DNA of 64,000 nucleotides from Bacteroidota bacterium (GCA_026391715.1 JAPLDO010000233.1:1790-65789), one strand, 5' to 3'; numbered from the stretch's first letter, positions 5,989-29,650 are shown. The notes: generated from the sequence alone by a model not told the origin. Made by a program: numbers and translations.

Positions 5989-6068
5989 GGTTTTGTTGTT
6001 TAGTTAAAGGTGATTTATAGTTTATAATATGAGATGTATTAGCTATTCATGTTACTGGTTGTGAGTTT

Positions 6069-7520
6069 CTACCATACGACAGAAGCTACTGATTGCGACG
6101 GAATTGAATATGAAAAATTCTTGTTCCCTTGTTTAACCGAAAAGGTTTTTGAGGAGGAGCTGTAATTGCAAACTATCATAGCTTTCGACCCATCAGGGTT
6201 TACAAATGCCACAGCCCCAATTTCGCTTAGGGTTTGCGGCATAGTTAACAAAACTCTGAATGCTCCGGGTCTTACGAATTTTGAAAAATGGGCAATAGAA
6301 TAGTACTCTTCATTGAATATTATCTGTCCGTTGGATGAATTGATGGTGACAACGCCCCTGCAATTGCTGCATCCGTTATTCGTGGGTCCATACTGCTGAT
6401 CCAGCGCCAGGTTCCACAGGAGAGCGCATTTCGACCAGTTCTGGGTAGTTCCGATAAAGATGTTTTTCATGTTCCACATCAGGTTGGAGCCGAAATCGGT
6501 AGCCCAGGCGCCGCCGGAAATCTCAGTAAAATAAAGCCCTTTATCGGGGTAGGCATTATGAACTGCGCTCATGGCTGAAACATCGCCGGCGTAAGCATGA
6601 AAGGCAGTACCCGCTATGAATTGTCTGACTGCCGCATCATTGAGGATTGATATCGCAAAGTAGGTATTATCCCAGTTGTGATCGTAAATAATAATTTTAG
6701 TATTTATCCCAGCCGCCTGAAATTTCGGGCCAAGATGGTTCTTAATAAAAGTTGCCTGTTCGTCAGGTTGCATCTCCATGCAAGGGTAACCCGCTGTAAA
6801 GTATAGCGGTTCATTTTGTGGCGTTACAGCGGTAATCGTGACGCCATGGTTTTTCATCTCCTGAATATACCTGACGAAATAGTCGGCATAAACTGAATAA
6901 CAATCAGTTTTCAATTTTCCCCCTTTCATATTTCCGTTGGTTTTCATCCAGGCGGGCGGGCTCCACGGCGATCCCATCAAACTTATTGCAGGCGTTATCT
7001 GAACAATTTCTTTTAAAATGGGAATCACATCGTTGGTATCGCCGGCGAGGGAGAAATGCTGCAAGGAAAAATCAGTTTGTCCCGATGGCAAATCATCGTA
7101 AGTAAAATCGGAAAGAGAGAAATCGGAAGCGCCGATGGTCAAACGCAAAAAGGAAATACCGGCGCCATTCACCGTGTCGAACAACTTTCGCAGCAAAGTC
7201 TGTCTGGCGCCAGAGCTTAATTTTTTATTAAACAGATAAGCCGAAGAACCTGTTAATGCCGCCCCGAATCCTTCGATGGTTTGAAGTTTTGTAACGGTAT
7301 CAACAGTGATTATTGGCACGGCGGACGATCCCTGAGCTTGTATTGACAAGTCGGCTTCTCTGTTAAATAGTTTTGATTTATCGCCGCGGGTCAGCCACAC
7401 TTTGGCTTTGCCAATATCAGTGGGCGTGGGAGGATCGGGTGAAACGTTATTATCGTTGGTTTTACAACTTATCAGAAAAAGAAATATGATCAGGGTCAAT
7501 ATCTTTGATTGGATTTTCAT
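6069..7520 (-). CDS. GH30 glycoside hydrolase lipoprotein (probable endo-beta-1,6-glucanase, GH30_3-like)
   Basis: Lipobox LISC; GFGAALT, SPWSPPAWMK, PQNEP (acid/base), YDHNWD, FTE (nucleophile), HFSKFVRPGA. The subfamily assignment is inferred. Confidence 0.88.
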   Translation of the reverse strand: MKIQSKILTLIIFLFLISCKTNDNNVSPDPPTPTDIGKAKVWLTRGDKSKLFNREADLSIQAQGSSAVPIITVDTVTKLQTIEGFGAALTGSSAYLFNKKLSSGARQTLLRKLFDTVNGAGISFLRLTIGASDFSLSDFTYDDLPSGQTDFSLQHFSLAGDTNDVIPILKEIVQITPAISLMGSPWSPPAWMKTNGNMKGGKLKTDCYSVYADYFVRYIQEMKNHGVTITAVTPQNEPLYFTAGYPCMEMQPDEQATFIKNHLGPKFQAAGINTKIIIYDHNWDNTYFAISILNDAAVRQFIAGTAFHAYAGDVSAMSAVHNAYPDKGLYFTEISGGAWATDFGSNLMWNMKNIFIGTTQNWSKCALLWNLALDQQYGPTNNGCSNCRGVVTINSSNGQIIFNEEYYSIAHFSKFVRPGAFRVLLTMPQTLSEIGAVAFVNPDGSKAMIVCNYSSSSKTFSVKQGNKNFSYSIPSQSVASVVW

Positions 7521-7562
7521 TATTTGCGCTTTAATGTTTCCTGTTTATCTCGTTTATAGTTG

Positions 7563-7659
7563 ATTTACGGCTTGCCTGTAGAACCAGTGCGCTGCAACCT
7601 TTTGTAGCAGAATTCCGTCGGCCGCGTTTGTTTTACAGGCGTGTTACCATCAGTAAAAA
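7563..7659 (-). repeat. attC-like site A (end of mazEF cassette; distal array boundary)
   Basis: Minus strand: GGTAAC-ac-GCCTGTAAAACAAACGCG...CGCACTGGTTCTACAGGC-aagcc-GTAAAT (14/18 stem). Homologous to site G. Confidence 0.75.
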
Positions 7660-7661
7660 GT

Positions 7662-7985
7662 TCAATCAACAAAAGTCTCCTTGATGATTGTCTTGACCCT
7701 TTTGATTTCTTTAGCTTCAAGTTCCCCAATAATTTTAATAATTCTGGTTGAATCAACAGTTCGGATTTGATCAATTGCGATCCAATTATCATATCCCTCA
7801 AGTATGAACCTGACCCTTGTAAAATAATCCTTAGACTTTGAAGTAATCGGAGCGATTGTTATTGTCCTCAGGTATTTATTCATTTCGTTAGGTGAAATTA
7901 CTAAGCAGGGGCGTGTTTTTTTAAATTCTTTCCCAACAGTAGGATCCAAATTTACTATGATGATTTGATATTGCTTTATTTCCAT
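7662..7985 (-). CDS. mazF: Type II toxin, PemK/MazF family
   Basis: NLDPTVGKEFKKTRPCLVISPNEMN...IAPITS...DQIRTVDSTR; overlaps the upstream antitoxin. Confidence 0.93.
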   Translation of the reverse strand: MEIKQYQIIIVNLDPTVGKEFKKTRPCLVISPNEMNKYLRTITIAPITSKSKDYFTRVRFILEGYDNWIAIDQIRTVDSTRIIKIIGELEAKEIKRVKTIIKETFVD

Positions 7986-8221
7986 TCTTCAAGATTTTCG
8001 TCAATAAAGATGTCATCAATAAGAAGTTTGTCATCACCATTCTCATGCATTTGCTGGAATGATTTTTCCCAACCCTGCCTGGGTTGTCTTACAGGTTTTA
8101 ATATTATTCGTCCTTTTTCCAATATTAACTCGACTTTATCTTTGATTTCATATTTTTCTAACAAAGATTTTGTTAATCTGATGCCTTTTGAATTTCCGAT
8201 ATCAATAATAGATACTTGCAT
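7976..8221 (-). CDS. mazE: AbrB/MazE family antitoxin
   Basis: MQVSIIDIGNSKGIRL...PRQGWEKSF...EEWK. Start placed at 8221 because the longer track start (8263) runs through the operator palindrome. Confidence 0.9.
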   Translation of the reverse strand: MQVSIIDIGNSKGIRLTKSLLEKYEIKDKVELILEKGRIILKPVRQPRQGWEKSFQQMHENGDDKLLIDDIFIDENLEEWK

Positions 8222-8232
8222 ATATTTGGGCA

Positions 8233-8255
8233 TTATAATTACATTGTAATTATAA
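8233..8255. promoter_or_regulatory. Probable MazE autorepression operator
   Basis: Perfect 11-bp inverted repeat TTATAATTACA-t-TGTAATTATAA, 12 bp upstream of the mazE start. Confidence 0.65.
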
Positions 8256-8298
8256 AAATACAATTTAATTTATCACGGCGCGTCTTCTTTCTATTTTA

Positions 8299-8445
8299 TT
8301 TTTATGACTGGTAACGGCTGAGTGTAGAAGTAGTATGGGATTGCGGGCTACAAACCTGTCTGCCGCCACCGAAGTTTGAGCGGAACAGAATGCTTGAATT
8401 ACCACTGAATCCCTTATTATATATCGCATTTATTATCGGTTGGTT
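8299..8445 (-). repeat. attC-like site B (degenerate left core)
   Basis: Minus: CCGATAAT...AAGGGATT...AATCCCATACTACTTCTACACT-cagcc-GTTACCAGTC. Interior (ctgtctgccgccaccgaagtttgagcgg...atgcttga...cccttatt) aligns with site E. Confidence 0.72.
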
Positions 8446-8573
8446 TTCTTTCAATTTTGACGCATCAATGCACCAACTTGTAATAACCTATCTTAAAATA
8501 CCAAAATTAGCTGGTTTATAAATATTCTTTTCCAATTTATTTTACTAATTGTATTGAAAAATTAGATGTGTTT

Positions 8574-9131
8574 TCAAAATTTCGGGTGCGTTTTCCCTAT
8601 ACTCCAGGCTTTTGCATACGAATCGCCCAATTGCCAGTATTTCCTTGTATTCATATCAAATAATATCGGGTCAATTTTCTTTAAATCTATTTGCCCATCG
8701 GTTAAAACCGAATCATCGCAAAAAGTATTAACAATTTCTCCTATGAAAATATCATGCGATCCGTAATCAAGATGATCTATCAGTTTACATTCCATGTTCA
8801 CTGCAAATTCCTCAATCATGGGAGCTGTTTTCATCACTCCGTAAAATGATGTAAAGAGTTCGGACTTGTCGGTGTTTTTCCCCGAAACTACACCACAATA
8901 ATCGGTTACAACGGTTTGTTTGGTCGAAGGCACATTTATACTAAATGTTTTATTTTCTATAATGCCATGCCCGCTGAAATGCACCTTTGCCATGCCCATA
9001 CAAACAATGTTGGCTTTAAGCACTCCCACATGAGCCATGGTAATATAATTTGGTTTGCCATTAATAACAGTACCCACCAGCACGGTTGGCAAAGGGTACA
9101 AAGCATTTAATGTACCTATTTTATTTTTCAT
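8574..9131 (-). CDS. Flavin reductase family protein (flavoredoxin-like)
   Basis: LYPLPTVLVG, FSINVP, DYCGVVSGKNTDK, APMIEE..NMEC, GSHDIFIGEI. Confidence 0.88.
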   Translation of the reverse strand: MKNKIGTLNALYPLPTVLVGTVINGKPNYITMAHVGVLKANIVCMGMAKVHFSGHGIIENKTFSINVPSTKQTVVTDYCGVVSGKNTDKSELFTSFYGVMKTAPMIEEFAVNMECKLIDHLDYGSHDIFIGEIVNTFCDDSVLTDGQIDLKKIDPILFDMNTRKYWQLGDSYAKAWSIGKTHPKF

Positions 9132-9137
9132 GTCTTT

Positions 9138-9650
9138 TTAAAATTTATTCCAATGTACTTTTTGCTTATCGTAGCGGCTTTTAACATCGTGTGTTTTTCC
9201 TTCAAAATGTCCGAAAGGAATTACCGAAACAGGATTTAAATTTGAGGGCAAATTAAGAAGTTCACGAATGTCGTCAATTGCATTTAGGAAGACAGCGCCC
9301 CAAACACCGCCCATGCCCTTGGCATGTATTGCCAATAAAATATTTTCGGTTGCAGCACAACAATCGTGAAAATGATAACCGATATTTTTTTCCAATTTAG
9401 TATCGCCGCAAACTAAAATGGCTGCTGAAGCATTTTTTAGATAACCAACATTTTGGTTTAGTTTTGAATATTCCTTCATAACGCTTTTATCGGTCATCAC
9501 TATAAATTGCCAAGCCTGTTCGTTCCCTGCTGATGGTGCATTCATGCCTGCTTCTAAAATTTCGCAAATATCGGTTTCCGAAATAGTTTCGTTGGTGAAT
9601 TTTCGCACACTGCGGCGAGTGTTAATTATATTTAAAAAATTATTTTCCAT
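9138..9650 (-). CDS. Nitroreductase family protein
   Basis: RRSVRKF, APSAGNEQAWQF, DCCAATENILLAIHAKGMGGVW. Confidence 0.92.
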   Translation of the reverse strand: MENNFLNIINTRRSVRKFTNETISETDICEILEAGMNAPSAGNEQAWQFIVMTDKSVMKEYSKLNQNVGYLKNASAAILVCGDTKLEKNIGYHFHDCCAATENILLAIHAKGMGGVWGAVFLNAIDDIRELLNLPSNLNPVSVIPFGHFEGKTHDVKSRYDKQKVHWNKF

Positions 9651-9666
9651 TTAATTTCATAATCTG

Positions 9667-11343
9667 TCAGTCGACTAACTTTGTAGCCGGTAAAATCATT
9701 CCGTCAAATGTTGAATTTAACGACTCTGCTTTCCCTTCTTTGTTTAAAACGAATGAAATCTTACTGGCAACTTCCATTGCAAAATAATCTAATTCACCTG
9801 TGGGCAGCAATTCGTATTTAGGCATATATGGCGTTAATACAAATAATTTGTCATTCTCTTTTATTATCTCAATTACGTAATTATTTCCAAAATCATATTT
9901 ACCAGTCAATTTATCATAAAAGTCAGGATTAATTTTTATAGGAGTTTCATCTTTAAGTCTGGTCGCTTCAAAAAAATCACCGTTTTGATATTGAAATAAA
10001 CGATCAACAATTGAGTATCTGTCTGATACGAATTTAATTTTTGCATTCCGGGCCTTGAAATAAAATTCATTTTCAGAAATGGGGGTCAATGGACTTGCTT
10101 CCATAGCTGTCATTTGTCCAAATAATTGTTTGTCTTTCAATGTTACCCATAAGGCCATCCCTTGCCCGTAATTATACCTGCCCACATATTTTTTCAAAAT
10201 GTTTTCGCTAACAATCGTGTCCACGCCAATACGCTGATTTTCGATTTTATCCTGGAGTATAAATTCAAATATTGCCTGACCATTTAATGTTGGATGAATA
10301 CCTTCCGGTGACGGAAGAGAGTTTAATAAAACACAAACGGTAAGCTTGTTTTCCGGCTGGCGTCCAAGAAATGCGCTAAAACCAGAGACGCCACCTGAAT
10401 GTTGAATAAATTTAAGTCCCCTGTTAGTAATTAAGAACCAACCAAACCCATAGTCAACCTTGCTGCCACTGTTTAAACCCGCCTGTGTGAAAGCTGCTTT
10501 TAAAGTGGCATTTGATAATACTTTTTCATTAAAAATAGCCTCGTTCCATTTGTACAAATCCTTTGTGGTGGAATAAATACTTCCAACTCCCAAAGTCCAC
10601 GACATTTCCTGAAAGTCAGCTTTCTTGACCTTTCCACCATTCATACTGTATCCTTGCGCTTCGTTATTCAATACAATATTGGTTTCGTAGATACCTGAAT
10701 TTTTCATACCCAAAGGTTTGAAAAAAGTTTCGTTCAGATATTCACCTAAAGTTTTACCTGAAAGTTGCGCAACGATATAACCTAAGATAAAATAACCGGA
10801 ATTGTTATACAGGTATCGTTCTCCCGGATTGAAATCGTATGGAAGTTTTTTAATGATATCAAGTAATGCCTGAGGAGTAACAGGCTTGGTCATATCCAAA
10901 TTAGGTGTAGAATTATAATCATGGATTCCGGAAGTATGCGTAAGAAGTTGATAAATCGTTACTTCATTTCCGCGTGGAAAATCGGGGATGTACTTTGATA
11001 ATTTATCCTCTGTCTTTATCTTGCCTTCTTCCTGAAGTTTGAGAATAGCAACAGCCGTAAATTGTTTTGAAATAGAACCTATTTTGAATTTTGTATCAGG
11101 CGTAACAGGAATTTTCTTTTCAATATCTGCATACCCAAATCCTTTTTGGTAAATTATATCTCCGTTTTGGGAAACCAATACAGAAGCTCCCGGCATTGTG
11201 TCAATCTGTAAACTTCTAAATATGTGCGAAATATAGTAATCTAAGGAGGGTATTCTATTCTTTTCCTGAGCTTGCAGGTTAATACCTGCCAGAAGGTTAA
11301 TCAAAATGATTGCAGACGAAACAAATCCAACTATTTTTTTCAT
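9667..11343 (-). CDS. Serine hydrolase, beta-lactamase/AmpC-like (peptidase S12) with C-terminal DUF3471-like domains
   Basis: Signal peptide; SxxK (GSISKQF), LLTHTSG, YxN (YLYNNSGY), HSGG; two C-terminal KYVGRY/KLTGKY modules. Confidence 0.88.
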   Translation of the reverse strand: MKKIVGFVSSAIILINLLAGINLQAQEKNRIPSLDYYISHIFRSLQIDTMPGASVLVSQNGDIIYQKGFGYADIEKKIPVTPDTKFKIGSISKQFTAVAILKLQEEGKIKTEDKLSKYIPDFPRGNEVTIYQLLTHTSGIHDYNSTPNLDMTKPVTPQALLDIIKKLPYDFNPGERYLYNNSGYFILGYIVAQLSGKTLGEYLNETFFKPLGMKNSGIYETNIVLNNEAQGYSMNGGKVKKADFQEMSWTLGVGSIYSTTKDLYKWNEAIFNEKVLSNATLKAAFTQAGLNSGSKVDYGFGWFLITNRGLKFIQHSGGVSGFSAFLGRQPENKLTVCVLLNSLPSPEGIHPTLNGQAIFEFILQDKIENQRIGVDTIVSENILKKYVGRYNYGQGMALWVTLKDKQLFGQMTAMEASPLTPISENEFYFKARNAKIKFVSDRYSIVDRLFQYQNGDFFEATRLKDETPIKINPDFYDKLTGKYDFGNNYVIEIIKENDKLFVLTPYMPKYELLPTGELDYFAMEVASKISFVLNKEGKAESLNSTFDGMILPATKLVD

Positions 11344-11418
11344 AATTACTATTTTAAAGATTACTTTTTGAGTTCATTATCAATTTATTATGATGGATCA
11401 GCATGATGCCGCAGAACA

Positions 11419-12726
11419 TTAATTTTTATTGATTCCTTTCCAATCAATCTTTCTTGAGTAATACATTACGATGGTCAAAATGACAAATAGCCCCATGCTC
11501 CCTATCAATAGGGCATAATCTTGCAACTGAAGGATGACGAAAATAAAACTATAAAGTATTACTAGATTTCCGCTCACCAAATAAGCCAATTTTTTGTCTC
11601 TAAGGATGCTTCTTGAGTACCAGGTAATTAGCCCGATTGTCATTATACTTGCTATTAAATACGCGAAGTTGAAATATAACTGCTCTGATAACGATAAGAG
11701 CAGAACGTAAAAAATACATAAGGCAAATCCAATGAGTATATACTGCAATGGGTGGATTGAATTGTTATTCAGCAATTCCAGAAAAAAGAAAATCAGAAAT
11801 GTAAGCGCAATAAACAGAATTGCATATTTGATGGAACGATCCGTTTTGGTATAATTATCAACCGGAAGGTATAACATGACGCCAAATGCCGATTCATCGA
11901 CTGAGAATGTTGAATTTAGCCATGATTGTGGATAGTTCCTATTTAAATGAAGCACTTTCCAATTTGCCGAGAAGCCAGTTGATTCAATTTCCCTGCTTAT
12001 TGGTAAAAAAGCGCCATCAAAACTAGGAGTTGCCCATCCGGATGAAATGCTTATTATCGTTTGTTTCCCGACTGGAGTGAAATAGAGATATTGCGAACCT
12101 CTCAATTTTAAATTTATCGAAAAATCGTGGATGTGATTGAGCGAATCCTGGTTATTAATTTGGATTCGGGTGTTGATTCCACTTTTAAAGATGTCAGTTG
12201 TCTCAACTCCGGAATTAAATGAATACTTCGTTGTATCAAAGTTAATGGTAACGCCATTTTCAATTCCGCGCAAATCGGTTATCCCAATCGAAATAAATGC
12301 TTCATTATACAAAATATCTTTTGACTGGATTGAAGGAAGCGATGGATTAAGGTCCGAAAAAGTTCCGTAAATTTCAATATCTGATGTATATACAACGGTT
12401 TCATACATTCCCCGGTATCGTTTTTCAGGCGCTAATTTCCCTTTAATATTTAGTTCCTCAGGAAGTATATGGATGTATTTTTTAGTTTTATGCACTGTCC
12501 CATTGGATTCTCTATAATAGTCCTCGTAGGGGATGGACACAATAGGCCCTGTTAATGTTTGAGCGTTGGCCCATTTGTTGCTTACCTCTGTAAATGCCTC
12601 TTTTTGTCGGGATTGCCTTTCATCCACTAAGGTATTAATGATTAACGTTGGAATAAGAAGCAAGATAATCAAAGCTGTGACTATAAATCCTTTGATCGTA
12701 ATCTGGTTTTTTGATTTCTCAGTCAT
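11419..12726 (-). CDS. creD: Cell envelope integrity inner membrane protein CreD
   Basis: ERQSRQ..W..AQTLTGP, W.TPSFDG.FLP, RSIKYAILFI, IHPLQYILIG, LQDYALLIGS, MYYSRKIDW. Confidence 0.92.
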   Translation of the reverse strand: MTEKSKNQITIKGFIVTALIILLLIPTLIINTLVDERQSRQKEAFTEVSNKWANAQTLTGPIVSIPYEDYYRESNGTVHKTKKYIHILPEELNIKGKLAPEKRYRGMYETVVYTSDIEIYGTFSDLNPSLPSIQSKDILYNEAFISIGITDLRGIENGVTINFDTTKYSFNSGVETTDIFKSGINTRIQINNQDSLNHIHDFSINLKLRGSQYLYFTPVGKQTIISISSGWATPSFDGAFLPISREIESTGFSANWKVLHLNRNYPQSWLNSTFSVDESAFGVMLYLPVDNYTKTDRSIKYAILFIALTFLIFFFLELLNNNSIHPLQYILIGFALCIFYVLLLSLSEQLYFNFAYLIASIMTIGLITWYSRSILRDKKLAYLVSGNLVILYSFIFVILQLQDYALLIGSMGLFVILTIVMYYSRKIDWKGINKN

Positions 12727-12747
12727 TTTATTATCCGTTAATTGATA

Positions 12748-12835
12748 GTTGCCAATGCCTTGCCAGCAGCCGCCAGTGCGGGTTTTACTTGTTGCATCGT
12801 TGCTTTTCCTCTGTCGCTAATCGGTTGGGCAGGTT
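12748..12835 (-). repeat. attC-like site D (truncated; right arm only, GTT mutated to ATT)
   Basis: gccaatgccttgccagcagccgccagtgcgggttttacttgttgcatcgttgcttttcct aligns with site F (gccaacgtgccaccggcagccgcagtgcgggatttacttgttttatgtttgcttttcct); left arm absent. Confidence 0.7.
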
Positions 12836-12849
12836 TTCCCTCATTTTTG

Positions 12850-14124
12850 TTATTTTTTCAGAAACTGATCGAACCAATTTTTCGCATGTATCACTGAATA
12901 TATGAAAGTTGCACGATGATCGGCTTTATCTCCTGCATAAACAGCGGTTGTGGGTCCACCGCCCAAAACTTTTTGAAAAGTTTCAGGAAGTCTTGCTATA
13001 AAAACCGGAACCACCTCGTCAGAGCCACCATAATAATTATACAAAGGCGTATGACTGCGCCAGCGGTATGCCTGACTTTTATCTAAAACTTGCCAATATG
13101 GACTTTCGCATGTGTTCCCGCTTGCCAGGAACTCAGGCTTAAGATAATCCTGCAGTTTGTCTTTGGTAAGTTTTCTGAAAGTCGCCCAATCTATTTTGCT
13201 GTTGTAAAAATCGATGGATGCCTGAAGATACTCGGGGCGAATTGCCGAGGCAGTTAATCCAACCTGTTGGTGATAATATTCCTGTGCCTGAATCTGCAAT
13301 GTTATACAACCCGGAAGATAAACAGCATCAATTGGTTGATAATTATTAAACCATCGGTCATACATTACAAGTCCATCTGCCGGAGCGCTTGCTGTTGCAG
13401 TTGCTGTTACGGTAATTCCTAAAGATTCCAATTTTTGCAGTAAGACCAGTGTAGCCCAGCCGCCCTGCGACCATCCGGTTAAAAATAATGGACCCTGCTT
13501 GATTTTTTTTGAGGTCAGGATGCTATTGGCTGCAAATAACATATCAACACAGGCCTGTTGAGCGCTGTTTAAAACAAGGTAGCTGTCGGGAAGGTCAGAC
13601 ATTCCTTTTCCAAAATAATCAGCGCATACAACAATATAACCCTGCGATGCAAACCGCGAAACTATGATTTTTGTCTCCATTGAATTTTCCGGGAAAGATG
13701 GCGCTTCGGTTTTGGAAAATGTTGTTCCATGTTGATACATCAACAATGGCATAGAATCTGAACCATTTTCAGGAATAGCAATTAATCCGGAAGCAACTAC
13801 TGGCCTGTTGGAGAGTTCAGGTATTACTGAATTATATTTTACACGATACAATTTTACAGGATATGTTGCAGGCGGGAAACTGTCGTTATATGCCTTGGAA
13901 CCAACCGTGGAAGTCTGTAAAAAATCTTCGAGATCTTTCTTGAAAACTTCGTTTAGTTTATGGGTGTCATAAGTTCCGATTAATTGGTATTGAACGCCGG
14001 ACGATACTTTAATATAATCATTGTCAGCTTGTCCGAAGGACTGCGGCAAGAAACCGATGATTAAATTGAAACAAAGGACACAAGCCCCAATTCCTGTTTT
14101 GATACTACCACTTATAATTTTCAT
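12850..14124 (-). CDS. Secreted alpha/beta hydrolase (lipase/esterase-like)
   Basis: Signal peptide; YQHGT, ADYFGKG, nucleophile elbow GWSQGG, DEVVP and late His (ADH). Confidence 0.85.
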   Translation of the reverse strand: MKIISGSIKTGIGACVLCFNLIIGFLPQSFGQADNDYIKVSSGVQYQLIGTYDTHKLNEVFKKDLEDFLQTSTVGSKAYNDSFPPATYPVKLYRVKYNSVIPELSNRPVVASGLIAIPENGSDSMPLLMYQHGTTFSKTEAPSFPENSMETKIIVSRFASQGYIVVCADYFGKGMSDLPDSYLVLNSAQQACVDMLFAANSILTSKKIKQGPLFLTGWSQGGWATLVLLQKLESLGITVTATATASAPADGLVMYDRWFNNYQPIDAVYLPGCITLQIQAQEYYHQQVGLTASAIRPEYLQASIDFYNSKIDWATFRKLTKDKLQDYLKPEFLASGNTCESPYWQVLDKSQAYRWRSHTPLYNYYGGSDEVVPVFIARLPETFQKVLGGGPTTAVYAGDKADHRATFIYSVIHAKNWFDQFLKK

Positions 14125-14272
14125 AATTATCAGTTTTGATGTTGTTTCATTGATAGAAAATTGTACAGGTTACCAATCTGACATTTTGTAAAATAATGGA
14201 AATGCATTTTTGTCGGTGACCATCCTAAGAAATAATTTCAATTTATATATTTGCCCTTTGGCCATTATTATT

Positions 14273-14873
14273 GTCGGGTAACGCAGGCGGGTTACCCTGC
14301 CCTTGTCCCCTAAGAACCGTACTTGATAGTTTCCCATCATACGGCTCAGTCTCTCCAAAGGCGGATTAAACCACCCGGCAATTTACAATATATTCAGTTC
14401 ACAAATCTGTACCTAAACCTTTTGACGAAGTAATTATCCCAGGAAGTATCGAAAGGATTAGCGTTTCCATTAATGAGCCGATGACGTTTGATATGGAAGT
14501 AGCCAAACATGCGAGGCAAGATAATCTTACCGATGTGTGTAATTTTGGTTTTCTCCGGTGATAAGAGTAACCCCCTTGTACTCGTATAAAACATACTTGC
14601 ATCCTGTCTTCTTGCCATTTTGGCCAATGTGTATCAACAACTTTCACATTTTCGCTGCATGACGGTACGTCGCCGGCAGTTTATATGTTTTCACCATACC
14701 ACCAAAGCCGACGCCTTTCAGAATGTTGTTCTGTCAGGGAATCTTGTTCCGGCAGCTTCACACCCCAATGTTGCCATTGACGCATGTGCCGGTAGGCTAC
14801 TCATGATGGAACATGAGATTAAATCACTCTTATAAAGAACGTTTAAAGTTATTTGAACGGCCTCGTGCCGCAC
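14273..14873 (-). mobile_element. Internally deleted group II intron (601 nt) retaining both termini
   Basis: 5' GTGCG at 14873; domain V GAGCCGTATGATGGGAAACTATCAAGTACGGTTC; domain VI hairpin ending ...TTACCCGAC at 14273; RT/maturase relics inside. Confidence 0.88.
14394..14627 (-). pseudogene. Fused relics of a group II intron reverse transcriptase/maturase
   Basis: RGLLLSPEKTKITHI (end of RT palm) joined directly to HIKRHRLINGNANPFDTSWDNYFVKR (C-terminal maturase region); no YADD motif. Confidence 0.82.
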
Positions 14874-14883
14874 TTCTAATTGA

Positions 14884-15022
14884 GCCTAACGATTGAGGCT
14901 ATATGCAGTTAGGTATTGCGGGTTAAACATCTGTCTGCCGACACCGAAGTTTGGGCGGGTCAGGATGCTTGACATACAACCGAAACCCTTATTGCATATA
15001 GCCTTCGTTAGCGTTTCGTTGT
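14884..15022 (-). repeat. attC-like site E (end of Fic cassette), intact
   Basis: Minus: AAACGCTAAC-ga-AGGCTATATGCA...TGCATATAGCCT-caatc-GTTAGGC; 12-bp perfect stem. Confidence 0.85.
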
Positions 15023-15086
15023 TTTCTATTTTGTCGTTTCGCTTTTCATTTTTTTGTTGTGTCCTGCCCCTTTTGCCGTTTTTTCT

Positions 15087-15968
15087 TTAATCATTTTCTT
15101 CGTAATAATATGAGTAGTCAATTCCTTTCATAAACATTTCGCGGTCGTTTATTTTAGTGGTAAGCGCTTTTTCCAAAAGTGTTTTTAGAACACTACTTTG
15201 GATTGGACTTAACATCATTGCGTTCATGTAATCTCGCTTGCTTATTTTACTCCAATCTACGCATTTTTTGAGGCGTTTTTTTAATATCAAATCCAACCAT
15301 ATTCGGGCGCTTCTGCCGTTGCCTTCCATAAAAGGGTGTGCAATGTTCATTACTATATATTTGTTTACGATTTCGTCAAATGTAGTTTCGGTCATTGCTT
15401 CTATTTGCATTAATGTGTCGCCTAAAAAGCGCGATACGGCAAATTGAAAACCACCTTTTGAAATATTTTTTTGTCTGATTTGTCCCGCAAAATCATACAA
15501 TCCGCCAAACAAATAAGCGTGTATTTGTTGCAAACCTTTAGTTGTGCCAACTTCTATGCTGTTGATAAAAGAACTTTCAAACATGGCATACGCTTTTGTT
15601 TTGCTTTTTCCATCTATGCTTTCATCGCTGTACGTAAACCATTCTATAAATCGGTTTGCCTTTTTGCTCGGAAATTCTTTGCCTAAGGCAATAATACCGG
15701 CGTAATCCAACATATCGCTTAAATATCGTTTACCGTCGCTTGCTAAAAGTTTCAGTTGGGTAGTGGCGCTAACCAACTCGCTGGTTTCTTTTTTTATTTT
15801 GGCTTTAAGGTATTTCCAATAGTTGCGGGTTTTGGTGTAGTCGTCTTGGTCGGTAAGCAAAGCTACAATATCCAACACACTAAACCACCACTTGGCGTTT
15901 TGTTCGTCCCAAACGGCTCGCACTTCGCGGTCGTCAAAAAAACGTATGGATATTTTTGTATTACTCAT
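15087..15968 (-). CDS. fic: Fic family protein (adenylyltransferase) with N-terminal BRO-N-like domain
   Basis: Canonical Fic motif [12 protein letters not shown]; N-terminus [26 protein letters not shown]...RNYWKYLK is BRO-N-like. Confidence 0.88.
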
Positions 15969-16060
15969 AATTTTAATGTTAACCATTCTGTCACGCTGTA
16001 ATTATTCGTGCAACGTTATGTTAATTTTTATCTTGTAGTTGAAGTCTGCGGCGTCACGTT

Positions 16061-16210
16061 ACAATAAACGCCAACGTGCCACCGGCAGCCGCAGTGCGGG
16101 ATTTACTTGTTTTATGTTTGCTTTTCCTTTATCGTTTATAGGTTTGGTGAATGCCCGCCTCCGGAAACCGCCCGCAATGCCCGGCTGCCAGTTCGTTACC
16201 TGCAAGGGTT
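16061..16210 (-). repeat. attC-like site F, intact
   Basis: Minus: GGTAAC-ga-ACTGGCAGCCGggCATTGCGGG...CCCGCACTGCGGCTGCCGGT-ggcac-GTTGGCG. Confidence 0.82.
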
Positions 16211-16230
16211 CATTATTCAGTGTGTTTTGA

Positions 16231-16530
16231 TCATAATTTAACGACTTTCTCCGTAAACAATAATTTATTGTCAGATGAAAACACATTTATGACATAGCTT
16301 CCAGGTTTAAGGTCTGCAACTGATATCCTATTCTCAAGGGTTCTAATTGTATTGCAAGTCTTACCCCCCGAGTCAGTAATGACAATGTTTTTGATTCCAT
16401 TAATTGAAATTGTCAGCAGATTACTTGTCGGATTTGGGTAAATCACATACTCGGTTAATGATACATTTTCAACAACGGGTCTCATACTGTTTTTAATGAC
16501 TTTTTTAGTAATCGATTTATGAGTCCCCAA
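16231..16530 (-). pseudogene. 3' fragment of a T9SS type A sorting-domain protein
   Basis: IYPNPTSNLLTI...DLKPGSYVINV...TEKVVKL is a T9SS CTD; no signal peptide, and the frame begins where site G is cut. Confidence 0.75.
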
Positions 16531-16531
16531 A

Positions 16532-16596
16532 CTGCAATTTTGGTAGCAGAAAACCGCTGATTGCGCTGGTTTTGCAGGCTTGTTACCAACAGCACT
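16532..16596 (-). repeat. attC-like site G (left arm only; end of higBA cassette)
   Basis: Minus: GTTGGTAAC-aa-GCCTGCAAAACCAGCGC...ttctgctaccaaaattgcag, homologous to site A up to 'ttgcag', then breaks. Confidence 0.75.
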
Positions 16597-16602
16597 TGGT
16601 TA

Positions 16603-16908
16603 TTACAAAATTGTCAAACGAATCTTTTTGCCAAGCCCAGTCTCAAATATCTTGAATAAGGTTGATAATTGAATGTCGGCTTTTCCGTTTTCAAGTCTGG
16701 AAATATAACTTTTCTTCGTCCCTATTTTGTCTGCTAATTGTTCCTGTGTAATATGGGCTTCTTTTCTTGCTTCTTTTAACATTTCTGAAATAATAAAAAA
16801 ATTCGCTTTGGCATCATACGCGTCTCGTAACGAAGTGCCTACTTTGCCATACTTTATATCCAAGAGTTCATCGAATGTTTTAGCGTTTCTTATTGCTTGT
16901 TCTTCCAT
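16603..16908 (-). CDS. higA: XRE/HTH antitoxin (HigA-like)
   Basis: LKEARKEAHITQEQLADKIGTKKSYISRLENGKADIQLSTL; downstream of a RelE-family toxin. Confidence 0.85.
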   Translation of the reverse strand: MEEQAIRNAKTFDELLDIKYGKVGTSLRDAYDAKANFFIISEMLKEARKEAHITQEQLADKIGTKKSYISRLENGKADIQLSTLFKIFETGLGKKIRLTIL

Positions 16909-17260
16909 TTTCCTTAGTTTTTGAACTTTTAAAATATTCCCGCTTCAGTCGGAGGGCTTTCTCAATTTCTTTCAAAGGTGTTTTCTGTGTCTTTTTTTGA
17001 AATCCGCTGAATAAAACAACAATATTTCCCTCATCGAAGCAGCAGAAAATTCTGTATATATTTGAACTGTATCCTACTTTCACTTCATAGAGGCCATCAG
17101 TACCTTCAATTAGGCTGAGAAATTTCTTAGAAACTCTCTCAGCCTACCTGATTATTCGCAGCACAAATTCTATCTTCTCCTGAACCCTTGTCGTTTGTTC
17201 AAGATAGAAATCAGCAAAGTTGCTGCCATGAAATATGATTATTCTTTCAACAAATTTCAC
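16880..17260 (-). pseudogene. higB: RelE/ParE-family (HigB/Gp49-like) toxin with an in-frame TAG
   Basis: GTG 17260: VKFVERIIIFHGSNFADFYLEQTTRVQEKIEFVLRIIR*AERVSKKFLSLIEGTDGLYEVKVGYSSNIYRIFCCFDEG...GFQKKTQKTP; TAG at 17144-17146. Confidence 0.85.
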
Positions 17261-17264
17261 ATTA

Positions 17265-17290
17265 CAAAGTTAACGGTAAAGTCAACATTT
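17265..17290 (-). promoter_or_regulatory. higBA promoter (-7 TAACTTTG) with overlapping palindromic operator
   Basis: TAACTTTG (17265-17272) matches the Bacteroidota TAnnTTTG element; overlaps GTTAAC-N6-GTCAAC. Confidence 0.55.
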
Positions 17291-17325
17291 CCTAATTTTC
17301 GTTAACAGTATGATCCTGTTTTTTT

Positions 17326-17439
17326 AGGGTTGTTGCTAACGGTTAAGGTATTGCCACAGTGCCGTCCGCTCAAATGTTTCAAGTTACCACAAAACTTTCT
17401 GGCGGCATTGTGGCAATACCTGCGTGATGTGTTCGTGCT
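17326..17439 (-). repeat. attC-like site H (end of R-M cassette)
   Basis: Minus: ACATCAC-gc-AGGTATTGCCACAATGCCG...CGGCACTGTGGCAATACCT-taacc-GTTAGCAAC; 18/19 stem. Confidence 0.85.
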
Positions 17440-17467
17440 TTTATTTTCCTTTGGTCTGTCGTTTGAA

Positions 17468-18358
17468 TTACATTGTCGCTTTCTTTCTTGTTCGTTTATA
17501 TTTCACTTTTGGTTCAAACAAACAATACTGACTTTCCTCAGCAATTTGTTTTGGTAATTTTTGCAGGTAGTTTGAAATAAAAAGTTCTTTTCCTGTTTGG
17601 TCAGAAGTGTCTGTAATATTTCTCATACCATAAGTCAAGTCCCAGGGAATAATGTTTGCGAATGAAAACAAGTCCCGGATATATTCACTGTCGTCATAAG
17701 TAATGAGCCAATTGTGTTTGCAGTTTTTCATTGTATCTGCAAACCGAATGTGGTCAAAAACTTTGTGCAGGTTTCCGTTCTTTCCGTAAAGAGCCGATTT
17801 AGTTGCTGAATGATAAGGCGGGTCAAGAAAAATAAATACATTTTCCCCATCTTGTTTTACTAACTCTTCATAGTCAAGATTAGTGATAGTTGAGCCGTTA
17901 ATTACTTTGGCAAATTGATTAAGTCTTTTAATACTGCTTTCGGTGAAACGACCTGTAAAAGCTCCTTCACTAAAACCACCGCTTAAACTTGTTCCGGAAA
18001 ATGTAATTCGGTTGTAAATAAAAAACGCTGCGGCTCTTTCCAAATCATTAAAGCCTGATATATTTTCATTTAAAAATTTATGTAATTCTTTTCCTATTGT
18101 GAATTTATTTCGCCATTCATAAATTTTATCAATTAAAGTATCTACGTCTCGTTGCGACATTTCCCAAAATTTAAAAAGTTCAAAATAAAGGTCGTTGACC
18201 CAAAACTTTTTATTTGGAAATCGTTGTTTGGCATAAATAAAAATAGAGCCTCCACCTAAAAATGGTTCACGAAACTCTTCAAAATAGGGCAACAGAGTTG
18301 AAATTAAGTCAACGGCTCTGCTTTTGCCTCCAGGGTATCTTAATGGACTTTTTATCAT
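17468..18358 (-). CDS. N6-adenine DNA methyltransferase (Dam/D12 class)
   Basis: SPLRYPGGKS, motif I EPFLGGGS, motif IV FLDPPY, ITYDDS, ELFISNY. Confidence 0.93.
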   Translation of the reverse strand: MIKSPLRYPGGKSRAVDLISTLLPYFEEFREPFLGGGSIFIYAKQRFPNKKFWVNDLYFELFKFWEMSQRDVDTLIDKIYEWRNKFTIGKELHKFLNENISGFNDLERAAAFFIYNRITFSGTSLSGGFSEGAFTGRFTESSIKRLNQFAKVINGSTITNLDYEELVKQDGENVFIFLDPPYHSATKSALYGKNGNLHKVFDHIRFADTMKNCKHNWLITYDDSEYIRDLFSFANIIPWDLTYGMRNITDTSDQTGKELFISNYLQKLPKQIAEESQYCLFEPKVKYKRTRKKATM

Positions 18359-19446
18359 TTTGAATATTGTACTTTAATGATAAACTTGTTCTGTTTAGCT
18401 TCCGCTATTATAGTTTCAATTAAAAGGATTTGCGAAACTGAAAGACTATTGTTTTTGAAAAATTCAGAGAGTTCGCTTTTAGAGCTTGAAGAAGTAATGC
18501 CTCCTTTAAGTTTCGAAGATGTCAAACATAAAATAGCTTCACTTTTTATTTTCTTGCTATCTGCAGTTACTTCTGAAAGATTACAATACAAAATCATTTT
18601 TAGCAAACCATCTTTAATGTCGCCTTTTCTTGGAAGTATAACATTTTTGCTATGCTTTCCTTCAATTAAACTTACCTTGTTTTTAGCAATTAAAATTTCA
18701 TCCACTGTAAAAAAATACTGTCCGCCTAAATAGTTGTTTATAGTAACTTTTGCTTTTGATAATGTGGATAAACTTTCTTTTGGTTGAAAAGTTGCAAATT
18801 CTCTTGACTGTGCTTTCTCTGCTTTACCTCTTGAAAACTCCATAAACTGCGAAACATCTTTTCCGATTTTGTTTTGAAAGTTTTCAAGTCCTGAGAAGCC
18901 GTGCAGTTTAACTCCTGATGATTTTTCTATTGATGTATAAGATGTTTTTACTTTCTCAATAATGGAGTGAATATTTGTATTCAATTCATTTAAATTCCAA
19001 TGCAAGGCAGAACTGTGATATTGTTCAATCTCTTTAATCTTTGTAAGCACATATTTATTGTCAAACTGTTGGTTCGTAATTTTCTTATCTGCTTTGTCAG
19101 CTTTGTTGTAGTAAGCAAAAATCACGAACACATCAAGCAAACTCATAAGTGAAACGGTATCCCATTGGATATAATCTCTGTCACCTACTGCGCCTTCGTC
19201 CTTAACGATAGGAATTACAGTAATCTTTTTAGAAATGTTGAGCGTGTTGTAAACTCTTGCATACGGAAATGAACGGGTGCGTTTAGGTGAAACCCATCTT
19301 GAGATTGCAAAAGAATGTTTACCGTCATTGATAATGCAGGCAGTTGGTACTTTGTTAATGTCAAAGTTAACCGATTCAATTTTTTCAAGTTCGGTTGCAA
19401 GTAAAACTTTGTATGTTATTCCTGTAATTTTTCCTGATATATTCAT
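18355..19446 (-). CDS. Putative type II restriction endonuclease (PD-(D/E)xK-like)
   Basis: Overlaps the MTase start (ATGA); VDE...LIEGKH resembles a PD-(D/E)xK motif. Function is inferred from context. Confidence 0.62.
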   Translation of the reverse strand: MNISGKITGITYKVLLATELEKIESVNFDINKVPTACIINDGKHSFAISRWVSPKRTRSFPYARVYNTLNISKKITVIPIVKDEGAVGDRDYIQWDTVSLMSLLDVFVIFAYYNKADKADKKITNQQFDNKYVLTKIKEIEQYHSSALHWNLNELNTNIHSIIEKVKTSYTSIEKSSGVKLHGFSGLENFQNKIGKDVSQFMEFSRGKAEKAQSREFATFQPKESLSTLSKAKVTINNYLGGQYFFTVDEILIAKNKVSLIEGKHSKNVILPRKGDIKDGLLKMILYCNLSEVTADSKKIKSEAILCLTSSKLKGGITSSSSKSELSEFFKNNSLSVSQILLIETIIAEAKQNKFIIKVQYSK

Positions 19447-19450
19447 TTTG

Positions 19451-19458
19451 CAAATTTA
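19451..19458 (-). promoter_or_regulatory. Bacteroidota -7 promoter element for the R-M cassette
   Basis: TAAATTTG ending 4 nt before the ATG at 19446. Confidence 0.5.
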
Positions 19459-19504
19459 AAGTTTCGTTTCATTTTTATATTAGCACTGTCTGCCAATCTT
19501 TTTA

Positions 19505-19530
19505 AGCATGACACATAACGCCAAAATAAC
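19505..19530 (-). other. Array entry half-site (attI-like or secondary site)
   Basis: Minus: gtggttattttggc-G|TTATGTGTCATGCT. No upstream hairpin arm; sequence after G is complementary to the left end of site H. Confidence 0.68.
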
Positions 19531-19593
19531 CACAATACTATTTATGTCCAATTAAACCCAAGGTGTTTACATTCTGCAAAAGGGGTAATTCGG

Positions 19594-21060
19594 TTAATAT
19601 CCCGGATTTTGCACCAGCTTTGAATTTTTATCAAGCTCAGCTTGCGGGATAGGCCAAAAAAGCCTGTTTGGCGTGAGGTTATAACCTATTTTTTTACCAT
19701 CCGGTCCAACTGCATTGTTCATTACTTCAATCGCTCTTCCTGTGCGTTTGAGATCAAACCAGCGATGCGCTTCATAAGCAAGTTCGAGCCTTCTCTCCTT
19801 TTCAATGGCAAGCCTCATGGCATCCTGGGTTGTGGCAGGTGTATTCTGCAATTTTGCCCGACTTCTGATCTGATTAACAAGAGCTGCAGCGCCTGACAAA
19901 TCGTTTAGTTCGTTTAAAGCTTCGGCTTTTAGCAACAGAATATCAGCGAGGCGGATGAAGATGTAGTTTTGATCGCTTCCCGTCGTAAAATTCCGGTACT
20001 TGTTGATAAATGGATAGTGTGTTTGAGGCCAGTTCGGATCTGACCATTTTCCGGTTACATCCAGAAAAATAATGGAAGCGTTTTTTCTCAGAGTGTCTTG
20101 CTCATCGTCAAATGCTTTCGTCAAATCATTCGCAGGAAGGTTGAATTTTTTCCAATCCAATCCCCTGAAAATTGTAACGCCCCAATTACCATCGGTTATG
20201 CCGCCTGTATAGTTGATTTCAAAAATTGACTCTGCCGAATTTTTATTCTGATTGTTCCACAGATCATTGAATTCAGGCATCAGGCTGTATCCTCCGGAAA
20301 TTACCGCGTCACAATATTGGGAAACTTTTCCCCAGTCATGAGGCGACTGAGTTGCATAAACGTAGGCAAGCATTGAATTAACAGCGCCTCTTGTTACATA
20401 GCCCTTATTGACTGCAGTAGCCGGTACAACTGCAACAGCAGTTTCAAGATCGGCAATTATTTGCTTGTAAATCGTTGCCATTGCGGTACGCGGAGGAAAC
20501 AGGATAGGATAAATTTCAGCCAGATTACTTGAACTGATTGACTTTACCTCCTTCAACTGCAAGGGAACATCGCCCCAAAGTTGCACCAGTTGAAAATACA
20601 TGAAAGCTCTGATAAATGAAGCTTCTCCAATGATTTGCTTTTTTCGCTCCGGCGTAAGTACCGGGTCGGGACATGAGTTCACATTATTGATTACCAGATT
20701 TGTTTTTCCAATAGTGGAATATAGGTAACCCCAGTCGCGGCTGACATTTGAGTTGGTTGCGTCGAGTTTAAGAGCGTCAATCTGAAAATTGGCAGGATTA
20801 TCGCCGCCTGAATATGCATCGTCGGATTGGGCGTCGCCGTTTACGAAATAATCGAGCTGGTAATACTCGTTTTTAAAATCGCCATAAGCTCCGCCCAAAG
20901 CGGCTTCAACCTCCTCGGCATTTTTATATAAAACCGAATCGGAGCTGCTGTTTTCAATTGCAATTCCCTGCGATGTCGGTTTCAGGTCGAGAAATTTCGT
21001 ACATGACTGAAATGAAATTCCGCCCAGAATTATTATCGCTAAAATGATTATCCTTTTCAT
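19594..21060 (-). CDS. susD: RagB/SusD family lipoprotein
   Basis: MKRIIILAIIILGGISFQSC lipobox; RLADILLLKAEA, ERRLELAYEAHRWFDLKR, QNPGY. Confidence 0.95.
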   Translation of the reverse strand: MKRIIILAIIILGGISFQSCTKFLDLKPTSQGIAIENSSSDSVLYKNAEEVEAALGGAYGDFKNEYYQLDYFVNGDAQSDDAYSGGDNPANFQIDALKLDATNSNVSRDWGYLYSTIGKTNLVINNVNSCPDPVLTPERKKQIIGEASFIRAFMYFQLVQLWGDVPLQLKEVKSISSSNLAEIYPILFPPRTAMATIYKQIIADLETAVAVVPATAVNKGYVTRGAVNSMLAYVYATQSPHDWGKVSQYCDAVISGGYSLMPEFNDLWNNQNKNSAESIFEINYTGGITDGNWGVTIFRGLDWKKFNLPANDLTKAFDDEQDTLRKNASIIFLDVTGKWSDPNWPQTHYPFINKYRNFTTGSDQNYIFIRLADILLLKAEALNELNDLSGAAALVNQIRSRAKLQNTPATTQDAMRLAIEKERRLELAYEAHRWFDLKRTGRAIEVMNNAVGPDGKKIGYNLTPNRLFWPIPQAELDKNSKLVQNPGY

Positions 21061-21070
21061 ATTCCAAAGA

Positions 21071-29425: not shown

Positions 29426-29544
29426 TTACACGGGTCATTTTTCATACTGTTTATTTTAATTGTATAAACTGATTGAACGCAATCTTACCAGTAAATTTGA
29501 AAATCACTTTTTGGGATAATTCCTGCAAACTTGACAGAAAACCA

Positions 29545-29650
29545 AACCACAAAGGCGCACAAAGTAGGTCGCTAAGTCGCACGTTTACTGGTACGATTGC
29601 GATTAATCAGTTTGTATTTTGTGCCATTTCATGTCGCTCTAAGGGATTCT
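29545..29650. repeat. Degenerate REP-like palindrome
   Basis: ccacaaaggcgcacaaag...tttgtattttgtgcc: imperfect inverted arms in an intergenic region. Confidence 0.3.

Follow-up and report, generated by a model that had tools for sequence, protein, structure and literature searches.

Sedentary chromosomal integrons, such as that of Vibrio cholerae with its integrase VchIntIA, harbor promoterless gene cassettes in a single orientation, which are separated by imperfect palindromes (attC sites) lying between an AAC and a GTT triplet. In the canonical mechanism, a cassette includes its attC hairpin and carries it along when it moves; an attC site has extrahelical bases on one arm and is recombined as a folded bottom strand. 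Clusters of attC sites without an integron integrase are referred to as CALIN, and single sites of this kind as SALIN (Cury 2016). The subject of the present analysis is a 64,000-nucleotide stretch of the genome of a Bacteroidota bacterium (GCA_026391715.1, JAPLDO010000233.1:1790-65789), hereafter referred to as the window, in which positions 7568 to 19519 probably represent an integron-type, CALIN-like cassette array inserted between the susD gene and a glycoside hydrolase family 30 (GH30) gene of a polysaccharide utilization locus.

The integron crossover is placed between the G and the TT of GTTRRRY, and the cassette is counted from the first T of this R′ box (PMC3518468, PMC2674596, PMC5027507); the 7-bp attC consensus is given as RYYYAAC/GTTRRRY (PMC3053210), with spacers of 5 to 6 nt on each arm (PMC5027507). 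The array described here, together with related loci in other genomes, resembles chromosomal integrons in the single orientation of its promoterless cassettes, in the palindromes between AAC and GTT, in a putative G|TT crossover behind the G of which the bases belong to the next cassette, and in its typical content of restriction-modification (R-M), higBA, Fic, and mazEF cassettes, among them toxin-antitoxin and R-M genes. Likewise, hairpins are nearly uniform within an array (loci L062 and L064), and an attI-like GTT lies beside the integrase-like gene of homologue loci.

All genes between 6 and 24 kb of the window are located on the minus strand, and a susC/susD pair (19594-24001) and the GH30 hydrolase gene (6069-7520) border a 12-kb stretch with a G+C content of 36.7%, compared to 42.8% for the genome. 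Among the 31 genomes compared throughout (the window's own and 30 relatives), a search with positions 5000 to 24000 found susD and the GH30 gene adjacent to each other in relatives G013:C22, G012:C8, G004:C13, and G021:C32, with a spacer of 9 to 60 nt in the three relatives that were read. These spacers are too diverged to align at the nucleotide level, and the empty site is thus visible as gene-level adjacency. The susD/array junction is spanned without differences by independent metagenome contigs from another study (X5 record 22; X3 records 14/15), and the insertion is therefore considered stable in the population. A profile search returned no recombinase match on the contig carrying the window (C118), and the array is thus regarded as a CALIN-like cluster: where a CALIN is defined by at least two attC sites with no integron integrase nearby, 7568-17423 holds three hairpin sites that are complete and four that are partial or terminal, called by an AAC-hairpin-GTT scan and by reading rather than by IntegronFinder. 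As in CALIN, SALIN, and attG insertions, the array lies between ordinary chromosomal genes and has one junction with non-att host sequence; this junction reads G|TA here, whereas GWT is reported for attG (Loot et al., 10.1101/2022.09.11.507474).

Complementary cassette ends

Four intact cassettes, carrying the R-M pair, higBA, Fic, and mazEF, are present in the window. A preliminary description of the window had held that the bases behind the GTT of each cassette pair better with the cassette's own far end than with the adjacent left core, and all eight end strings that it quoted are found at their minus-strand positions (Table 1). Pairing was scored between the 18 nt behind GTT and the 18 nt before AAC, anchored at the triplets, with the shared GTT/AAC left out of the score. 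Each of the four cassettes pairs best with its own far end, ranking first of 20 (runners-up 5, 3, 3, and 5), and in the four-by-four table of window ends the observed sum of 30 is reached by a single permutation of the 24, namely the identity, the next best being 22. The test was extended by 12 cassettes from elsewhere: one each from C3 and C199 of the same genome and from G005:C31, five from L062, three from L064 (matches longer than 100 nt; two short matches dropped), and one from L088 (beyond position 12000; one dropped). Window sites lacking a partner (truncated hairpin 2, half hairpin 12757-12829, and degenerate hairpin 8316-8457) lie outside this set.

All 16 cognate pairs rank first of 20, with a mean score of 9.4 and a minimum of 5, compared to a mean of 1.9 and a maximum of 7 for the 404 noncognate pairs; shuffled starts attain the lowest cognate score in 2% of 2,000 trials. 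The own far end also surpasses the adjacent left core in every one of the 16 cassettes, same-site pairs averaging 2.4 (n = 16) with a maximum of 6. The paired ends extend over 15 to 22 nt, exceeding, as had been claimed, the 7 bp of the R box in chromosomal integrons. When the cassettes were circularized in silico and hairpin energies were calculated with DNA parameters, the circular form was predicted to be more stable than the array form, and than every permuted partner, at 13 of 13 sites. Mean energies for circular, array, and permuted forms were −33.6, −25.3, and −25.4 kcal/mol, respectively (19 to 20 permuted partners per site), with circular versus array values of −28.3 and −20.9 kcal/mol for the R-M site, −31.8 and −24.5 kcal/mol for the Fic site, and −18.6 and −12.7 kcal/mol for the mazEF site. 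The higBA site, whose hairpin is truncated, was assessed by arm pairing alone. The end pairing reported in the preliminary description is thereby confirmed, far beyond chance.

Complete sites (n = 17) measure 74 to 121 nt between the AAC and GTT triplets. The R-M far end reads CAC rather than AAC, and the last site of the array reads GTA (G at 7568) rather than GTT. The fourth base of R′ is a purine in 21 of 21 cases. All 13 predicted folds of circular sites follow one plan: a long outer stem leads to an asymmetric loop immediately inward of AAC/GTT, and an inner stem then encloses a center that is large and variable. The predicted loop has 1 to 2 nt on one arm and 4 to 5 nt on the other, in contrast to the spacers of canonical sites, with 5 to 6 nt on each arm (PMC5027507).

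The hairpins might alternatively be terminators or repetitive extragenic palindrome (REP)-like intergenic repeats, the ends of the cassettes pairing by chance. Although they do follow genes, belong to families dispersed in the genome, and are found by a generic hairpin scan no more often than in a reversed-genome control, such an origin, as had been argued beforehand, does not predict the cognate-end pattern. It is contradicted by the permutation tests, in which cognate pairs take first place throughout while noncognate scores stop at 7 and few shuffles reach the lowest cognate value, as well as by the uniform outcome of the energy test and by cassette boundaries common to several genomes, and it is hardly credible.

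The pairing supports the view that the junctions, in all 16 cassettes, are recombinant hybrids arising from site-specific exchange at or next to G|TT. By analogy with integrons, a circular intermediate would be expected, and the preliminary description had each cassette arrive as a circle. This part of its proposal did not find the same support, as the short Logan contigs of four metagenome runs contained no trustworthy circle or excision junction, the joints seen being weak or repeat derived; uncovered parts and depth differences in these runs were not used. Two candidate excisions were rejected: the 8321>15077 joint is not trusted (depth, 2.4; side, 28), and those at 12793>16126 represent type C repeat variants.

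Cassette bodies and hairpins in related genomes

The anticipated recurrence of cassettes with fixed boundaries next to different neighbors was borne out for the Fic and mazEF cassettes and for a cassette on contig C17 of the same genome, all of which start at the same GTT elsewhere. The mazEF match in G011:C27 spans exactly 8315-7644 of the window, and the Fic match in G027:C531 (92% identity) stops at 15007, the C of AAC. In L062, the C17 cassette recurs at 77% identity in the interval from the first to the second scan-called hairpin and likewise begins with GTTATGCACAAGG. In the three families compared, orthologous cassettes are homologous only from GTT to AAC: identity is 56 to 79% inside the cassette ends but 49 to 59% before GTT and 36 to 62% after AAC, relative to a background mean of 53.5%. 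The ends of the Fic orthologues have changed together (GGCGTTT/AAACGC versus GGCGGTC/GACCGCC), which argues for selection on pairing. Further homologues, of higBA in G003:C58 and of mazEF in G014:C452, show no recognizable cassette ends and no hairpins, respectively, and were not counted as cassettes.

The hairpin behind the cassette is not conserved in the same manner. Behind Fic, the window carries a 116-nt type A hairpin, G027 an unrelated hairpin of 37 nt, and G008 a type C hairpin, which is 94% identical to the window hairpin upstream of Fic, the Fic bodies being 83% identical. The mazEF and C17/L062 cassettes are likewise accompanied by different hairpins in different genomes.

Such units, each bounded by an inverted complement of 15 to 22 nt and moving without either flanking hairpin, could in principle be small transposons akin to miniature inverted-repeat transposable elements (MITEs), carried by a transposase into hairpin targets. 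End sequences vary from cassette to cassette, with only the pairing and GTT/AAC retained, and it is therefore a structure that appears to be recognized rather than a transposase-binding sequence. In addition, the units lack a transposase, the junction sequences give no sign of target duplications, and in other genomes the regularly tiled units are preceded by an attI-like GTT and, before it, the gene for a tyrosine recombinase. We consider a transposon origin very improbable.

A recombinase family and its arrays

The best integron-integrase match in the genome is a 542-amino-acid (aa) protein encoded downstream of leuS on contig C79 (3687-5315). Its best NCBIfam match is TIGR02249 (209.6 bits; cut-off, 265), followed by XerA (189.8) and XerD (153.7), and no protein in the genome, a 256-contig draft that is 98.99% complete, exceeds the TIGR02249 cut-off. 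The protein contains the catalytic domain PF00589 (E value, 3.3e-41) and the SAM-like core-binding domain PF13495 (9.7e-14), and its best PDB match is VchIntIA (2a3v; 3.9e-38). The insertion specific to IntI, an additional domain around patch III, is absent: residues 444-463 (20 residues) take the place of VchIntIA 181-243, and TIGR02249 positions 180-238 are unmatched. Unlike IntI, the protein carries an N-terminal extension of approximately 270 residues, modeled by AlphaFold2 (predicted local distance difference test score, 81.9) as three beta-beta-alpha-beta-beta-alpha repeats. The third of these resembles the N-terminal domains of UvsW of phage T4 (Z score, 6.6) and XPB (6.1) and, more weakly, the HARP domain of SMARCAL1 (4.6), but also eIF1 (6.9), Z scores under 8 being common by chance. 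Pfam HARP (PF07443) matches below its cut-off (8.5e-5), and Foldseek returned no match to the N-terminal model at an E value of ≤0.001. As a lead from the model, the repeats may have a role in structure-specific binding of branched or hairpin DNA. "Integron-like" simple tyrosine recombinases without the insertion have been recorded with no role assigned (Smyshlyaev et al. 2021, PMC8138268). The C79 protein would be a member of this group, to which the available part of that source ascribes neither a cassette array nor an N-terminal repeat domain.

Counting that of the window, 23 of the 31 genomes encode homologues of the C79 recombinase; within the same genus, 15 of 18 genomes do so. At 12 of the 17 homologue loci of relatives, the contig ends within 600 nt of the 3′ end of the recombinase gene, as is usual where variable or repeated DNA breaks assemblies. 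Sites were scanned at 47 of 50 loci from named records (fragments L073, L109, and L110 were left out). Downstream of the five full-length homologues with a flank of at least 1.5 kb on that side, 18 AAC-hairpin-GTT sites occur in 33.7 kb, compared to 2 sites within 44.6 kb on the upstream side. For the remaining 42 loci, most of which match in the catalytic domain only, the corresponding figures are 6 sites (188 kb) downstream and 17 (246 kb) upstream. In L062 and L064, sites tile the DNA, with approximately 120 nt from the AAC of one cassette to the next GTT, and the array open reading frames (ORFs) are co-oriented with the recombinase gene, a further difference from canonical IntI loci. Seven loci share a semiconserved region that contains an AAATATA box and terminates in a GTT located 240 to 310 nt behind the stop codon. 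The bases behind this attI-like GTT pair with the end of the first cassette in the three loci tested (L064, score 10; G005, 8; L062, 13), and an adjacent attI-like GTT and cassette array were found in L062, L064, and G005:C31. As judged from sequence, these homologue loci show the architecture of a complete integron with its attI. At C79 itself, the gene is followed by higBA, a small ORF, and one attC-like site, after which the contig ends. Among 8,000 candidate database proteins scored, 3,383 match at an E value of ≤1e-20, the 120 best bearing generic names (XerD, site-specific integrase). A homologue with 45% identity is found in the record of an isolate.

From these observations, the following mechanism appears probable. 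A unit would extend from G|TT to AAC and be followed by a hairpin of 74 to 120 nt. In the circular cassette, the first 15 to 22 nt behind GTT would pair with the last 15 to 22 nt before AAC, forming a long, R-box-like outer stem below the hairpin, and a tyrosine recombinase would exchange strands at G|TT, rendering each GTT junction of the array a hybrid with its hairpin side derived from one unit and the bases behind the G from the next cassette. The IntI/XerA-like C79 protein is the most likely enzyme to act on the window sites. Because orthologous cassettes keep the GTT-to-AAC body but neither flanking hairpin, a second crossover is also presumed. Exchange at G|TT alone cannot part a cassette from its hairpin. 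The simplest extension is therefore a further exchange on the other arm, at its AAC (top-strand AA|C), and the hairpin would then become a separable linker. For canonical IntI, top-strand AA|C exchange is described as rare (PMC5027507); its use would fit an enzyme that lacks the domain for reading extrahelical bases. An exchangeable linker would also explain the uniform hairpins within an array.

Several observations weigh against reading the window as an integron-type array. Besides the lack of a trusted circle joint, the hairpin does not travel with the cassette in any of the three families compared, contrary to the canonical mechanism, and the canonical boxes are rarely matched, GTTRRRY by 3 of 21 R′ and RYYYAAC by 3 of 20 R″ boxes. 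Of the 13 sites folded, only 9 have a bottom strand that is predicted to be more stable than the top strand. Intact sites are missing from about half of the array (8574-14873). The recombinase is encoded on a contig other than that of the array and lacks the insertion that defines IntI, and its family is as near to archaeal XerA as to the IntI models (best E values, 9e-67 versus 1e-65; 27 members). Genome-wide scans were unspecific, with 352 AAC-hairpin-GTT matches compared to 488 in the reversed-genome control and 128 GTT.../...AAC inverted-end matches compared to 142, and the sites can therefore be recognized only locally.

The array could also be the ordinary remnant of an integron (a CALIN) built by a canonical IntI, since lost or unassembled, through bottom-strand exchange at G|TT only, the long pairing being the outer part of attC palindromes. 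Such a remnant would agree with the AAC...GTT boxes, the imperfect palindromes, the cassettes for toxin-antitoxin and R-M systems, and the presence of a group II intron beside one site; moreover, the genome is a draft, and integrons are listed for Bacteroidota in reviews (PMC8618304). That so complete a genome holds no TIGR02249 match over the cut-off, that exchange at G|TT alone could not yield hairpins that fail to be coinherited in 3 of 3 cassette families, and that arrays lie directly behind an insertion-less recombinase in other genomes render this explanation unlikely. Instead, we tentatively propose, with some reservation, that Bacteroidota carry a widespread integron lineage that is missed by current definitions. 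It would comprise an insertion-less IntI/XerA-like recombinase with three N-terminal repeats, an attI-like GTT approximately 250 to 300 nt behind its gene, and co-oriented arrays, with exchange at both G|TT and AA|C, the GTT...AAC body being mobile and the hairpin serving as an exchangeable linker, which would either remain in the array or form an "overlap" between the cut points.

Array content and wider significance

The units of the array are, in order, the R-M pair, higB/higA, a 5′-truncated gene with a type IX secretion system (T9SS) domain, Bro-N/Fic, the group II intron remnant, genes for an alpha/beta hydrolase, CreD, a beta-lactamase-fold protein, a nitroreductase, and a flavin reductase, and finally mazE/mazF (Table 1). 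The hairpin-forming repeats between them, which at the window sites read have AAC to their left and GTT to their right, belong to at least three sequence families (D1, D2, and D3), in addition to one unique repeat with a 19-bp stem.

Table 1. Coordinates of the array, its cassettes and hairpins, and the flanking genes (window positions)
Feature	Position	Strand	Evidence or remark
susD-like gene, upstream flank	19594..21096	-	Pfam SusD_RagB/SusD-like_3
Cassette 1, R-M pair; start GTTATGTGTCATGCT, end AGCACGAACACATCAC	17424..19519	-	Cognate score 9, rank 1/20
Cassette 1 ORF, 363 aa, no family match	18355-19446	-	
Stretch of 22 nt in the 363-aa ORF	19118..19139	-	Inverted repeat I10, versus 17421-17442
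Cassette 1 D12 N6-adenine methyltransferase	17468-18358	-	
Hairpin 1, 83 nt from CAC to next GTT, 19-bp stem 95% complementary	17341..17423	-	Inverted repeat I23, fold
Cassette 2, higB (Gp49 family, in-frame TAG stop) and higA (HTH_3); start GTTAGCAACAACCCT, end AGTGCTGTTGGTAAC	16582..17340	-	Cognate score 6, rank 1/20
Hairpin 2, type B, left part only, fused to interior of next (T9SS-cargo) gene	16531..16581	-	Repeat family D3, with 7600-7653
5′-truncated gene, T9SS C-terminal sorting domain alone remains	16231..16530	-	Pfam Por_Secre_tail
Hairpin 3, type C, GGTAAC to GTTGGCG	16076..16194	-	Repeat D2, scan match
Cassette 4, Bro-N/Fic protein adenylyltransferase; start GTTGGCGTTTATTGT, end ACAACGAAACGCTAAC	15007..16075	-	Cognate score 6, rank 1/20
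Hairpin 4, type A, 116 nt	14891..15006	-	Repeat D1
Group II intron remnant, ~600 nt, cassette orientation	14273..14873	-	Rfam RF02012 (72.6 bits), RF00029 (60.4 bits)
Block without intact sites: alpha/beta hydrolase, CreD, beta-lactamase fold plus DUF3471, nitroreductase, flavin reductase	8574..14124	-	Pfam
Right half of type C hairpin, behind hydrolase	12757-12829	-	Repeat D2
Degenerate type A hairpin, center kept, arm pairing lost	8316..8457	-	Repeat D1, 74%
Cassette 7, mazE-like (95 aa) and mazF/PemK; start GTTACCAGTCATAAAAA, end TTTTTACTGATGGTAAC	7643..8315	-	Cognate score 9, rank 1/20
Hairpin 7, type B, ends GTAAATC (G at 7568), host junction	7568..7642	-	Read, fold
GH30 glycoside hydrolase, downstream flank	6069..7520	-	Pfam

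Orthologues of the Fic cassette were found in G027, G008, G003, G015, and G026; the G008 copy of the hairpin upstream of Fic (hairpin 3) lies on contig C15. Copies of the type A hairpin are present on contigs C237, C149, C216, C17, C3, and C191 of the same genome. In the block without intact sites, candidate ends show no significant complementarity, and the four genes from CreD to flavin reductase were rejected as a single cassette (ends 12756 and ~8440), as their score of 4 is matched by 4.8% of window positions.

Group IIC introns are known to associate with attC sites, and the intron remnant of the window likewise lies directly behind a hairpin site, starting 17 nt past the G of the GTT at hairpin 4. 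In contrast to such introns, it is in cassette orientation and retains no intact ORF: domains D1 to D4 and D5/6 are matched by Rfam, and no intact reverse-transcriptase ORF is present between 14273 and 14873. Pieces related to it occur in G016, G022, and G005.

A number of further observations were made within the window. The higBA cassette carries a broken higB next to an apparently intact higA (16880-17250). The stretch at 19118-19139 is complementary at 20 of 22 positions to the far end of its own R-M cassette (17421-17442), a match reached by 0 of 100 shuffles, and pairs with that end better than the true cassette start does; this could be due to long-range mRNA pairing, or a former boundary may have left the stretch behind as a relic. 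Outside the array, the ORFs 28118-29425 and 29699-32077 are separated by a lone AAC...GTT site at 29467-29612 (stem of approximately 20 bp, span of 140 nt, scan score of 37), which may represent either a terminator or a stray single site.

Others concern further contigs of the window's own genome (G000) and of the relative G011. In G000:C17 (13300-13520), only the left half of a C79-type hairpin remains behind a cassette end, fused to the interior of a higB-like gene, a deletion of the same kind as that at position 16531 of the window. An IS4-like transposase ORF (G000:C3, 5606-6634) is located at the end of a second small array with type A and C hairpins (~3400-3530 and 4870-4995). Inverted runs of GTTCAAG/GTTCCAG heptamers flank segments of approximately 3.5 kb on contigs C160 (11283-14849), C241 (11653-14905), and C243 (443-4052) of G000 and look like the ends of another repeated element. 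In G011:C27 (L017/L060, ~715-900), a GTT links the mazEF cassette to a second copy of the C79-type recombinase gene, of which the first 57 codons are present at the joint, the intact gene of G011 being located on C187; the joint represents either insertion at a secondary site in the recombinase gene or an assembly chimera.

The end-pairing signature at G|TT is that of a textbook integron, and its interpretation in the preliminary description rederives a known principle. The surrounding system looks like a variant of the integron kind that is apparently new: no earlier description of such a combination of recombinase and array was found in the literature searched, although Bacteroidota CALINs may be listed in the phylum tables of Loot et al. 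and of IntegronFinder 2.0. Integron surveys rest on the IntI-specific domain and on an attC model trained on canonical sites; judged in this way, Bacteroidetes were almost devoid of integrons, IntegronFinder 2.0 recording one complete integron, in Salinibacter ruber. If these arrays are indeed operated by the recombinase family, their mobile cassettes, with toxin-antitoxin, R-M, and Fic genes, would constitute a large reservoir that is being overlooked. The uncoupling of hairpin and cassette would, if true, undercut the use of attC similarity as a tracer of cassette origin, at least in this lineage, and would offer a handle on the genesis of cassettes and how they acquire attC, as well as on how strand selectivity is achieved without a domain that reads extrahelical bases.

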